From positions 124,744,001 to 124,808,000 of the forward strand of contig OX597815.1 of assembly GCA_951406725.2 (NCBI GenBank): DNA of 64,000 bases, given 5' to 3'. Positions 9,441 through 57,831 of the stretch are shown piece after piece (position 1 is the stretch's first letter; each line of letters starts with the position of its first letter). The notes below the pieces were generated by a model, which was given only the letters and a program-made list of their open reading frames with translations, was not told where the DNA came from and searched no databases. The translations under genes were made by a program, and so were the position numbers. This DNA comes from Octopus vulgaris. Its lineage: Eukaryota.

Positions 9441-9850
9441 AAATATTATTAGAGACAAAACCACTATTTTGCAAAACAAACAAGGAAAGACTTAATCAAT
9501 ACATAAAATTTTAATAAATAGTCAAAAAACGCACTACAATTGTTTCTTCTTGATCGACAATCTTCAGGTGGATATATCAGTTTCAAATTATGACTTCATA
9601 ATTTGAAACTGATATATTGGAAGTCCACCTGAAGATTGTCGATCAAGACAAGAAACAATTGTAGTGGCGGTTTTTTTGACTATTTATTAAAATTTTATGT
9701 ATTGATTAAGTCTTTCCTTGTTTGTTTTGCAAAATAGTGGTTTTGTCTCTAATAATATTTTATAATATTTTACTATAAAAATTGGATTTAATCCTAAATC
9801 TGATTTTTTCCCTGTAAATTTGGATTTATTCCCTAATATTTATTATATAA
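9441..9850. mobile_element. Snap-back palindrome (arms 9441-9593 / 9596-9760 plus ~90-nt unpaired tail), probable Penelope-like pLTR inversion, in (TA)n
   Basis: Near-perfect inverted repeat with a 2-nt apex; hammerhead motif in each arm; (TA)n on both flanks. Confidence 0.85.
9625..9667 (+). ncRNA. Minimal type I hammerhead ribozyme
   Basis: ccac-CTGAAGA-ttgtc(gatcaa)gacaa-GAAA-caattg-TA-gtgg: stem I ccac/gtgg, 5-bp stem II, palindromic stem III, GUA cleavage triplet. Confidence 0.85.
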
Positions 9851-10079
9851 ATATATATATATATATAAACACGTATATGTTTACACGCTACAGTTAAGCT
9901 TATCAATGGTCCCTATATGACAAGGGCAGGTATGCAAAGAATTTGTTATAGATGTCTTCTGCAAACACGCGCTGTCAACAAGACGTAGGAAGACAATCAA
10001 AATTATTTGATGTTCCTACATAAATAACATTATTCGGCAGTCAATAAAAAATCGGTTTATTTAATTTATTGTATCTAGT

Positions 10080-10300
10080 GTGATGTATCCCAGACTTCTT
10101 AGGTAAAAAGCTAAAAGTTGGATAAAACAGTCAAACGTCCCTGAAATAGTATCTTACCATTCTGTCTTGAAATGAGAAAACACATTAGACAGTGTAGTCT
10201 TAGTTATACCCAAAACGTCGGTTCATCGGTGTCTGGAATGCCTTTCATCACAAGTCTTCTCGGTCGGGGTTGGTAACCTGGAGCTAAACAACAATCAATA
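10080..10300 (+). mobile_element. Degenerate SINE-like family C (other copies approx. 26610-26775 +, 34680-34830 -, 36540-36720 +, 55985-56130 -, 63600-64000 +)
   Basis: Shared tail resembling 'gcctttgatcataggtctgctc..gacctggggctaaacaacaa' and upstream 'ctagaaatagcagccaaat'. Confidence 0.6.
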
Positions 10301-10735
10301 GCCTTGTAAAAAGTTCCCAATGTAGAAATGTAATAGATAAACTCCCGTAGAGATGATAATAGACAGCTCAGTATTTTACATTTCTTATTAAAAGAGCTTT
10401 CCTTTATTCACACTACTAATTACTTTGTCAAAGAGGGAATGTCACAAAGCCCTAGCTTAGTGGTTCTCAGACTGCCAAATATCAGGCTACCTCCGATACC
10501 CAATACGTATATGAGTGTATGAGAGTGCGTGTGTGTATACGAACATATATATTTATATATGTATAATCATATATATAATGTACATATATATACATATATA
10601 TACATACACACACATACACACACACACACGCACACACACACACACACACACACACACACACACACACACACACACACACACACATACATATATATATATA
10701 TATACATATATATACATACATACATACACACACAC

Positions 10736-10900
10736 CAGGGATGCTGAAAAGTTTCTGGCTTTAAGGGTATTAGGGAGGGCCTTGTAAGGGGGCCTAACCT
10801 TCCGAGTTCTTTTACAGGGCTTAGAGAAACTGAAGGACCGCTGCAATAATTGTGTGAATTTGAGAGAGGGATATGTTGACAAAAATCATAATAAACTAAT
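10736..10900 (+). mobile_element. Mariner relic (TIR-like start plus transposase C-terminus)
   Basis: 'gggatgctgaaaagtttctggc' terminus; translation GLEKLKDRCNNCVNLR..YV resembles the mariner C-terminal L..RW.KCV...G.YVE motif. Confidence 0.6.
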
Positions 10901-10904
10901 ATAG

Positions 10905-11490
10905 GTATAGTTGCAGGCCTGGCTGCGTGGTAATAAGGGACTAAAGCCATCTGTTCGGGGTTCAGTTCCTGGGGCATGTGTCTTCTACTATAGTCGCAGG
11001 CTGACCAAAGCCTTGTGAATGAATTTGGTAGATGGTAACTGAAAGAAGCCCAACATATACATATATATATATATATATATATATATATATATATATATAT
11101 ATAACATAAGGGATATATATATACTGTTGCATTTGCCCAGGCACATATCGATATATATATATATATAGCGAACACACGGACATGGTTTCAAATATATATA
11201 AATTATATATATATATATATATATTATATGTATGTCTATATGTATGTATGCATGTATATATATACATTTGTATGTATTACTATGTATATATGTGAGTGTG
11301 CGTGTTTGCGTGTATCTGTGTTTGTCTCCACTACCGGTGTTGGTGGGTATACGATCCCGTAACTTAGCAGTTTGGTGAAAGAGACCGATGGAATAAATAG
11401 TAGGCTTTAAAAAAATTAAATACTGGTGTCGATTCATTCGAAAAATTCTTCAACGCGATGCCCTAGCATAGCCACAGTCTAATGACAGAA
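10905..11490 (+). mobile_element. SINE family B with internal microsatellite
   Basis: Head (tggctgcgtggtaa..gggttcagttcc..gaaagaagcc) 10905-11050, TA-rich spacer, tail (ctgtgtttgtctcc..aacttagcagtttgg..gccctagcatagccacagtctaatgacagaaac) 11310-11490. Confidence 0.8.
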
Positions 11491-11572
11491 ACAATGGGAA
11501 GAGGTAGGGGGAAAAAGTTATGCATATGTATATAATTGTGAAACTGGCTGTTTTTTTTATTAATGAAAAGAC

Positions 11573-55100: not shown

Positions 55101-56199
55101 GTAATTAGAACATGTTACTCTAATTTTGTTGTTGTTGTTTTACCACTACCAAATTAACTTTCATATGTTCTAATTAAATCAGAACTAATTGAATATTTCA
55201 AGCCGTATTTGTTATCTAATTAATCATTCCATCATTGAAAGCTGTCGAAACTTTCCACTTCTGCGCTACTCTCGCTGCCTACTCTGGCGAACTCCGAACT
55301 TTCTCTTAACTTAGAAGTCAGAATAAATTAAACAGTACACAAGCCCAGTGGTTCTCATACTAAAAAATACCAACCTAAGCCCCCACCCCTCAAAAGAAAT
55401 TAGGGTAATTATTGCAACAACACTCTTCTTTTATTAATGAAAATACAAAAATAAATACTGCACGCGTATAATTTTCTTCGTCATGGTATTGAAGAAAGTT
55501 GAAAAGTTTAAAACTGTGTTTTATCAAACATGATAATTAATTCTTCTCCGTTTTTAATTTTAAAGAATACCCCCAGAAGGAGCATCATCCCCAGCTCATG
55601 AGAAACTCTGTACCACTCAATCAGACATAAAAACTGATTTTGGTTAGAAATGCGTATACTCGAATGTTACACAAGGAACACTTCTCTTTCACTTACAATT
55701 TCAACTCTCAGACTAACCAGTTGACTAAACTGCTGGAAGCTGTTCTTTTGAGAAACTAGACGTAAAAGACAGTATTGTTGCTCTTTTTATTATTGATAAC
55801 ATTGTTGGTTTGTGTAAGACCGAAACTTAAATTCTTCCTTCTGATAAAATGCTCTGGCGTCTAAACCCCTTTTATGGAAGAGATTTAATTTTTTTAGAAT
55901 ATATTGTTCCATGAAGATAGCGAGTTGTTTAGTTTTCACCAATTTCACAGCTACTCAGATTCATCTGCTTGTACAATTATTGTTTCTGTTTAGCCTAGGG
56001 CTCCAGTCGTGTTCAACCCGTTTATAGCATATCAGAATCTACGTTGTCTACTGTTTCCTTTATTTAACACGGTACGATCTAATTTGAGTGATTTGAGTGT
56101 TGTTATTTCTAACAGGCCAAGCAACCTCGTATAGGATCCTTCATAGGCTCGTATTATTGTTATTAAAGATAAAGAATCGTTAGAGAGTCAGATACAAAG

Positions 56200-56515
56200 C
56201 CTCGCAAAATTCGATCCGACTGTGATCTGATTTTCAAATCCCATCGAGGTCAGTTTTGCATTTTATCCTTTCCGGCCAAGGTAACAGTCCAGTACTCAAC
56301 TCAGTCTTCCACCACTCCTTGTTGCTTCCTAGATTGTATTTTGTAAGTCAAAGGCCTGGCTTCTCCTATTCTGCCACATTAATTCCGTGTAAGAATAGCA
56401 TTAAAAAGTGCATGTGTCTGTGGAATACTCAGTCGTTATACGCTAATTTCATGAGTAAGAATGCAATAGATCGAACAATAGCATACACATCGTCGAGACC
56501 GACGGAGAATCCATC
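56200..56515 (+). mobile_element. Old SINE: family A-like core joined to family D tail
   Basis: 'tcaaatcccatcgaggtcagttttgcattttatcctttc' then 'tgtgtctgtggaatactcag..atcgtcgagaccgacggag'. Confidence 0.55.
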
Positions 56516-57363
56516 ATTAGTGGTACAATGATGACTACATTGCACTAAATTTAAAAGGTGGTTAGTGGAAACTCGGCCCTCGCATTCTGTAAAGGATAGG
56601 TTTGAATTTTGACCGCCTCTTGAGGATATGTGGTCAATTAAAAAGTCGCCGTCTTTGTCTTCGTTGTTGTTGTTGTTGTTGTTAACGTTGAGGTTTATAG
56701 GGGTGGTGCTAGTAGTTTTTATATTAGTATCAGTAGTAAAACAGATGTACGTGTACTCGTAGCCACTGTTTTAGTAAGAGGGAAGTAGGCGTAGTCTTCC
56801 TCTACCACCTCTTTTCATCTTATTCCTCCTCCTTCATATTATTATCACCACACATCATCGTCATCGTCATTATCATCGTCGTCATAAACATCATCATTAT
56901 CATCATCTTCACTGTCGTCGTCGTCGTTGTCATCCATCAATATTAATTTCGACCATCAACAACACCAATAGCAGTTTATCCCAGTTCAACCCTGATTGAA
57001 CGAATCGATTGTAAAAATCGTTTACATATTACATTTACAGATAAATTCTTCCATTTACATAATATCGAGGTCGCTTTCTTACTTTAGTTGCCTTACCGTT
57101 TCTATCTATCTATCTATCTATCTATCTATATATATATATATATATATATATATATATATATATATAATAATAATTCTCTAAATGAGATATAGACAGTGAC
57201 TGCTCCATAACATAAGGGACATTAGCCAACTGAATATGGCTAGGGACAGGGCAGGGTGGTGGGGGTGTCACTGTTGCATTTAGCCCCAGGCGAACATCAA
57301 CGTCATCAGATAGGCCGACGCCATCACGGCGTCCTCTATCTTGCAAAGGGAGATCATTCCCCA

Positions 57364-57438
57364 AGAAGCGGATGCCACATACGGACCTAGGTTTCAAGGT
57401 GTATTGCCTATTATCAACGCATGGTAGGCACCGCTTCT
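57364..57438 (-). ncRNA. Type I hammerhead ribozyme, U3-A8 variant (left-arm copy)
   Basis: Reverse complement of 57524-57598. Confidence 0.75.
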
Positions 57439-57523
57439 CGACGAACAACTCACCGTGCAAGATATATATAAAGATTTTACTTGAAAATCTTTATATATAT
57501 CTTGCACGGTGAGTTGTTCGTCG

Positions 57524-57598
57524 AGAAGCGGTGCCTACCATGCGTTGATAATAGGCAATACACCTTGAAACCTAGGTCCGTATGTGGCATCCGCTTCT
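57524..57598 (+). ncRNA. Type I hammerhead ribozyme, U3-A8 variant (right-arm copy)
   Basis: agaagcgg-tgcc-tac-catgcg-TTGATAA-t-agg(caataca)cct-t-GAAA-cctagg-TC-cgtatg-t-ggca-t-ccgcttct; GUC triplet, palindromic stem III, ~18-bp interrupted stem I. Confidence 0.75.
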
Positions 57599-57831
57599 TG
57601 GGGAATGATCTCCCTTTGCAAGATAGAGGACACCGTGATGGCGTCGGCCTATCTAGTGACGTTGACGTTCGCCTGGGGCTAAATGCAACAGTGACACCCC
57701 CACCACCCTGCCCTGTCCCTAGCCATATTCAGTTGGCTAATGTCCCTTATGTTATATATATATATATATATATATATATATGTATGTATGTATGTATGTA
57801 TGTATGTATGTATGTATGTATGTATGTATGA

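Follow-up and report, generated by a model that had tools for sequence, protein, structure and literature searches.

Two-armed hammerhead hairpins in the octopus genome as likely products of double target priming by Penelope-like elements

The window analyzed here, a 64,000-nucleotide stretch of the Octopus vulgaris genome (GenBank assembly GCA_951406725.2, contig OX597815.1, positions 124,744,001 to 124,808,000), contains three hairpin-forming elements with hammerhead ribozyme motifs, E1, E2, and E3 (Table 1), each of which is an asymmetric head-to-head palindrome with a longer outer end on one side. A first-pass annotation of this DNA had described them as near-perfect hairpins that are unrelated in sequence, have unequal arms, and lie within (TA)n, and all of this holds: the whole-hairpin identity in BLAST searches of each element against itself is 91% for E1, 90% for E2, and 98% for E3; no similarity was found when the three were compared with each other; and all are flanked on both sides by (TA)n or (TATC)n/(TATG)n tracts. 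No coding sequence of Penelope-like elements (PLEs) was detected in the window, either in the list of open reading frames (ORFs) or by tblastn.

Table 1 Features of the three hairpins, in window coordinates (sites A and B are the two 3' ends defined in the text; pLTR, pseudo-long terminal repeat)
Feature	Position	Strand	Description
E1 short arm	9441..9593	-	spliced pLTR copy, ends at 3' site A, joined to (TA)n
E1 second hammerhead	9532..9571	-	core intact, stem II with 2-nt deletion
E1 apex	9594..9595		CT loop, at predicted transcription start of parent element
E1 long arm	9593..9845	+	ends at site B; exon 1 9593-9615, exon 2 from 9616
E1 hammerhead	9625..9667	+	type I minimal, canonical core; predicted cleavage after 9663
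E1 tail	9769..9845	+	about 77 nt between sites A and B
E2 long arm	49174..49331	-	pLTR copy ending at site B
E2 tail	about 49174-49202		34 nt in family
E2 hammerhead-like motif	49296..49331	-	CTGAAGA, GCAA variant, palindromic stem III, weak stem I
E2 apex	49332..49333		CC, at initiator-like TCAAT about 30 nt below TATAAAA box (longer family members)
E2 short arm	49334..49463	+	ends at site A
E2 second motif	49337..49369	+	G8A core mutation
E3 long arm	57166..57478	-	part of 355-nt tandem unit, ends at site B
E3 tail	57166-57206		44 nt in family
E3 second hammerhead	57375..57424	-	U3-A8 core as in first
E3 apex	57479..57483		5 nt
E3 short arm	57484..57755	+	ends at site A
E3 hammerhead	57538..57587	+	type I, U3-A8 core variant; predicted cleavage after 57578

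The outward-facing hammerhead that had been noted in each arm retains its core in five of the six arms, the exception being the right arm of E2, where the core is broken by G8A. The plus-strand motif of E1 is canonical (stem I CCAC/GTGG, CTGAAGA, a 5-bp stem II, GAAA, and a palindromic stem III), the minus-strand motif of E2 has GCAA in place of GAAA, and both E3 motifs have a 7-bp stem I. A strict hammerhead descriptor produced four matches in the window, all inside E1-E3, compared with a mean of 0.01 and a maximum of 1 in 100 block shuffles. The hammerhead family was absent among the 150 listed of the 169 Rfam matches in the window (E ≤ 1), all of the listed ones being miRNA matches driven by microsatellites. 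Monomer folding did not yield the hammerhead fold for E1 and E2 (z = 0.15 and -0.01; for E3, z = -1.96), which is the prediction for dimer-type motifs and gives no evidence on activity. The distance from the apex to the hammerhead core is 34 nt in E1, 4 nt in E2, and about 63 nt in E3; the shared proximity to the apex that the first-pass annotation emphasized characterizes the families of E1 and E2 but is coincidental in E3, where the junctions are spread over the unit.

A genome-wide first look at the relatives of the three elements produced 1089 candidates for E1, 1080 for E2, and 1280 for E3, of which 40 were scored per family. E1 derives from a parent in the form of a tandem unit of 6 kb (L375/L376), which contains an 840-amino-acid (aa) ORF and has ends 97% identical to E1. 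Exon 1 of the parent, only 23 nt long, begins with the initiator-like sequence TCACTTC and is followed by a 1,816-nt GT-AG intron and then by the hammerhead. In E1, exon 1 is joined precisely to exon 2, with the intron removed, so that E1 is a retrocopy of a spliced sense RNA. Exact patterns for this family recovered 365 spliced arms and 312 arms with the acceptor pattern (one of the 100 listed acceptor matches is not an acceptor, and the first donor pattern gave no matches). Pfam recognized no family in the 840-aa ORF, and the reverse transcriptase (RT)/GIY-YIG parentage of E1 is thus based on motifs, YRDD and YIG; in addition, the ORF contains DKT, a CxCx5C linker, and CxxC and CxH near its end, and lacks CCHH. 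Judged by these motifs against the description of the Hydra clade by Craig et al. (2021, PMC8557442), E1 is a spliced pLTR copy of a Hydra-type PLE: the parent matches this clade in DKT, the linker, the lack of CCHH, the canonical hammerhead, and the (TA)n target, and differs in the 6-kb unit, the 1.8-kb intron, an asparagine-rich insert, and KWK where RWK is described. The insert lies between the RT and the endonuclease of the Hydra-type ORF (L377:3787-6306), as described in rotifer Penelope elements. The pLTR arrangement of PLEs is present both as the tandem unit in L375/L376 and as inverted arms in 35 of the 48 long E1-family loci, the other 13 being solo copies. A sister family, F1b, has the layout of the E1 parent with a 1.1-kb intron; an autonomous partner of F1b was not found.

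Relatives of E2 at 71-86% identity are located downstream of ORFs with an RT end and a GIY-YIG domain (Pfam GIY-YIG over the cut-off), and the translations of L204, L213, and L214 contain a Cx2-5CxxC linker before the C-terminal GIY-YIG with CCHH. By these linker motifs, E2 is assigned to the pLTR of a Neptune-type PLE, from the Neptune or possibly the Nematis clade; eight long E2-family loci stop short of any ORF. The relatives have a U3-A8 core where E2 has C3-G8, and the same covariation is seen between E3 and its sister family, F3b. Both GAAA and GCAA are present among the E2 relatives; GCAA thus replaces GAAA in two distinct PLE families here (L160, L166, and L205; the E2 family), a replacement that was not found in the passages searched on Schistosoma PLEs (Cervera and de la Pena 2014, PMC4209133). 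The dual minimal hammerheads of the latter are on opposite strands, 100-700 bp apart, and have in common with the elements described here the U3-A8 core variant and the palindromic helix III. A young Neptune-type PLE (L175-L192) has many open 781-aa RT/GIY-YIG frames and, overlapping them upstream, a frame of 479 aa; its hammerhead is of the U3-A8 type, its tail is 35 nt long, and it likely encodes an active enzyme. This abundant PLE was considered as the source of E1-E3 and rejected, since it has no pLTR sequence in common with them. In BLASTP, the ORF of the E1 parent showed no significant similarity to the Neptune-type ORF.

E3 belongs, by its sequence features, to a tandem retrozyme-like family with a 355-nt unit that contains a type I hammerhead and no ORF; the exact pattern of this hammerhead occurs 121 times in the genome. 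In the sister family F3b, the unit is 353 nt long, the hammerhead core is canonical, and the palindromic stem III differs from that of E3. In E3 and F3b, the units of an insertion are equally alike in both arms. The divergence of units within one insertion (1.24% on the same arm and 1.25% on opposite arms, vs 2.7% between insertions) appears compatible with a circle or a homogeneous multimer as the template. Retrozymes have been described as PLE derivatives, with non-LTR retrozyme units of 350-390 bp in mussels (Cervera and de la Pena 2020, PMC7229834; Li et al. 2026, 10.64898/2026.07.22.740005); E3 differs from these in its inverted arms and PLE-style ends. The word "inverted" is absent from PMC7229834, and no description of inverted retrozyme arms was found in the portion of Li et al. 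that was searched. Of the two origins proposed in the first-pass annotation, derivation from (TA)n-targeting PLEs, with the inverted arm made at integration, is borne out, and a retrozyme-like mobile class only to the extent that E3 comes from a retrozyme-like tandem family; there is no fixed palindromic unit, and apices vary. E1-E3 are neither a new class nor fixed units but ordinary PLE debris and retrozymes.

Comparison of the insertions within each family reveals a rule. Each family has two fixed 3' ends, site A and site B, both joined to (TA)n, where B is A plus a tail of 77 nt in the E1 family, 34 nt in the E2 family, and 44 nt in the E3 family. When all sets are pooled, an arm ending at A is paired with an arm ending at B in 154 of the 156 classifiable two-armed insertions, compared with about half expected under independent choice of ends. 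The pairing was observed in 33/33 E1 minis, 14/14 E2-family, and 24/24 E3-family insertions, in 23/25 F1b, 17/17 F3b, and 8/8 further intron-bearing F1b insertions, in 32/32 long E1-family copies, and in 3/3 insertions of the 781-aa Neptune-type PLE. Nine loci with a truncated, complex, or unclassed end (L054, L101, L102, L088, L266, L344, L392, L406, and L411) were left out of this count, as were repeated copies of a single insertion and L310 and L311, duplicates of the insertion L349; L040 was assigned manually. Both sites are also found as the ends of solo copies (12 at A and 8 at B in the E2 family). In L082, an E3-family insertion outside (TA)n, a 12-bp target duplication surrounds both arms. 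No common predicted fold was found across the tails. A few E1-family arms (L006, L389) extend about 25 nt beyond site B, possibly reflecting a minor third start.

The two arms of an insertion are more similar to each other than to arms of other insertions: the divergence within and between insertions is 0.6% vs 1.1% for E1, 1.4% vs 3.1% for E3, 4.8% vs 5.6% for E2, and 0.5% vs 1.7% for the long E1-family copies. Common variants are found on both arms in 62/66 cases in E3, 15/21 in E1 minis, and 43/48 in long E1 copies. Private variants, which may be RT errors or later mutations, are mostly on one arm (60 vs 5, 20 vs 1, and 56 vs 5), so conversion between arms is limited. These private mutations, together with the A/B rule and the target duplication around L082, make it hardly credible that the palindromes are artefacts of assembly or of fold-back in long reads; although none of the listed contigs from four sequencing runs spans a whole element, contigs of two other runs contain E3-family head-to-head joints.

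The splice state is concordant as well. Among the exact-match arms of the E1 family on contigs C1-C4 (C4 to 117.9 Mb; 99 unspliced and 79 spliced), head-to-head pairs were unspliced-unspliced in 28 cases and spliced-spliced in 19, with no mixed pairs (47/47 concordant). Another possibility is that integration proceeds through a self-primed hairpin intermediate, copied from an antisense template (Arkhipova et al. 2013, PMC3846280), one end of which is trimmed of its tail by the endonuclease (PMC8557442) before insertion. Such an intermediate would yield one tail per insertion, on either arm, and site A indeed resembles the AT-rich target in all families. We nevertheless consider this route improbable, given that the precise removal of the intron in the 365 spliced arms implies a spliced sense RNA template, that the apices match the sense-strand start, and that target-primed starts occur at both sites in vitro (PMC11167929); its antisense-template version is unable to yield spliced copies.

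The apices vary, from a few nucleotides in the minis to kilobase offsets in the long copies, and most of the junctions have a 0-4 nt overlap; such variation in ordinary truncated PLE copies is what, according to the first-pass annotation, would reduce the hairpins to known PLE behavior. In E3 and F3b, junctions are scattered along the unit; in E1 and F1b minis, apices cluster at the start of exon 1; and numerous E2-family arms terminate at TCAAT, some 30 nt downstream of TATAAAA and 3-5 nt before the core. In the E1 and E2 families, the clustered apices coincide with an initiator-like start that precedes the core by 4-35 nt; the ribozyme is uncleaved in both arms, and the apices probably represent run-off at the predicted 5' end of the transcript. 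The ribozyme would then be near the apex because apices sit at the transcript start, and given that cleavage would have deleted the core, the earlier proposal of a fold-back near the self-cleavage site is not supported. The ribozyme appears to be a passenger in the integration step. As for an extra G at the apex derived from the cap, it is suggestive in E2 (L031, L102), but we do not adopt this explanation, given that in E1 and F1b the other arm could supply the G.

The same data speak against the palindrome itself being the mobile unit of a new non-coding class. In favor of such a unit, the E1 minis vary little in size, and in 26 of the 33 the lengths of the two arms, measured upstream of site A, differ by no more than 15 nt; yet these 33 near-identical minis have many junction types, the same ends also occur solo and in kilobase-long versions, and E1 and E2 have RT-bearing parents, so that we regard this possibility as very remote.

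A more serious alternative is snap-back, whereby a B-primed cDNA would fold back, be copied to site A, and join the target, with later deletions at the center shortening either arm. This scheme accounts for the A+B pairing, the common variants, and the common splice state, as well as for the tailed arm being longer in 23/35 long copies and for the deletion in L373 that is present in both arms. However, the tail-less arm reaches further 5' in 14/24 E3-family, 5/14 E2-family, and 12/35 long E1-family insertions (among the latter, L375 and L417 are arguable and cancel each other) and thus is not a fold-back copy of the tailed arm, so that frequent later deletions have to be postulated even in copies with 97-99% identity. 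Furthermore, copying must stop exactly at the RT start of the solo copies; a single loop orientation is predicted, whereas the E1 apex loop may face either way with respect to the tail (4 AG and 3 CT, that is, 4 of the 7 loops are opposite); and the loop-less palindromes at AATT (5 of the 33 E1 mini apices) would require a 1-bp fold-back primer. Simple snap-back as the sole route is therefore not supported, and the version with subsequent deletions seems to us unlikely, although not negligible.

We favor, with a probability of about 0.6, double target priming, that is, formation of the two-armed insertions by a PLE dimer that nicks both strands and primes two cDNAs on one sense RNA. Under this model, the dimeric enzyme would nick both strands of (TA)n, and cDNAs would be primed at sites A and B of the same sense RNA, one per DNA strand. 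Both cDNAs would extend in the direction of the 5' end of the RNA, with displacement of the first by the second, and halt at the transcript start or earlier, after which the cDNA ends would be joined head to head via 0-4 nt microhomology; loss of one cDNA would leave a solo A or solo B copy. For the short hairpins, the template would be a short transcript from the promoter of the pLTR itself that starts just upstream of the hammerhead and is spliced in the case of E1; for E3, it would be a 355-nt tandem or circular RNA, so that the apex and the number of units vary. The model has a biochemical precedent: in vitro, a PLE of Anolis, a predicted dimer, cleaves and extends both target strands from two start sites that bound the tail, and ribozyme cleavage is not needed (PMC11167929). 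We consider it fairly probable that PLEs of at least two deep clades, along with retrozyme passengers, integrate in this manner, with fixed start sites bounding the tail.

Several observations weigh against double target priming. In the Anolis system, no difference between the strands was seen in the use of the start sites, and pairing per target molecule is not covered in the text examined (PMC11167929). The tailed arm is longer in the 23 long E1-family copies mentioned above. Long palindromes are prone to asymmetric center deletions, which could convert hairpins in which B came first into those with a longer A arm. The identical internal deletion in both arms of L373 is equally predicted by fold-back, and common variants are discordant between arms in 5/48 cases in long E1 copies and 16/18 in the older E2 family; these sites may represent recurrent mutations. 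The E1 minis were chosen by a query that favors B on the best arm; without this set, A+B pairing amounts to 121/123. There are two exceptions to the pairing, both in F1b (L232, A+A; L251, B+B), and L310 is A+A, with an apex in common with its A+B duplicates, looking like secondary tail loss. Finally, no autonomous partner of E3 was found among the 70 GIY-YIG loci examined (150 matches listed). The insertion represented by L349, L310, and L311 is present on three segments (contigs C28, C31, and C31, respectively), one of which lost the tail, a route to later A+A.

Inverted 5' copies with the tail often at one end are already on record for endonuclease-bearing PLEs, as an inverted pLTR and an optional tail (Arkhipova et al. 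2013, PMC3846280; Craig et al. 2021, PMC8557442), and the formation of the inverted repeats and tails has been named an open question (PMC8557442, PMC11167929). Compared with those elements, the one-tail pattern described here is near obligate, one of the tails is 77 nt long rather than 30-40, and many copies are spliced, intron-less, pLTR-only retrocopies. New here are the two fixed ends per family, their near-obligate pairing, and the common variants and splice state; neither obligate A+B pairing nor twin priming by PLEs was found stated in the literature searched, which covered papers outside subscription and without supplements. In twin priming of L1, both target strands prime on one RNA, the ends are joined by microhomology, and an inversion without duplication results, with a variable second site. 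The elements described here differ from L1 in that the start sites of both primers are fixed, at a distance of 34-77 nt, and the arms consequently duplicate each other. If correct, double target priming would account at once for the inversion of the pLTR, the tail on one side, the existence of solo copies with and without it, and kilobase-asymmetric junctions, and would overturn the idea of antisense self-priming. The value of these families lies in the rule they expose: A+B pairing, origin of both arms from the same RNA, and spliced sense templates translate into a specific prediction for the in vitro system already available. For each clade, the families offer hundreds of natural products of integration, and because of them the genome contains many long sequences that can form hairpins.

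Other inverted repeats in the window are more diverged. At 7686-8834, between (TA)n-type tracts, there is an older head-to-head inverted repeat with arms of about 330 bp at 78% identity and an inner pair at 86%, without a hammerhead match or a match to the studied families, which is perhaps another two-armed insertion or a miniature inverted-repeat transposable element. Further inverted pairs, with 76-86% identity and no match to the PLE references, are located at 60500-62880, 35043-36388, 8909-9376, and 22622-22693. A short fragment at 19533-19588 belongs to the retrozyme-like F3b family (82%).

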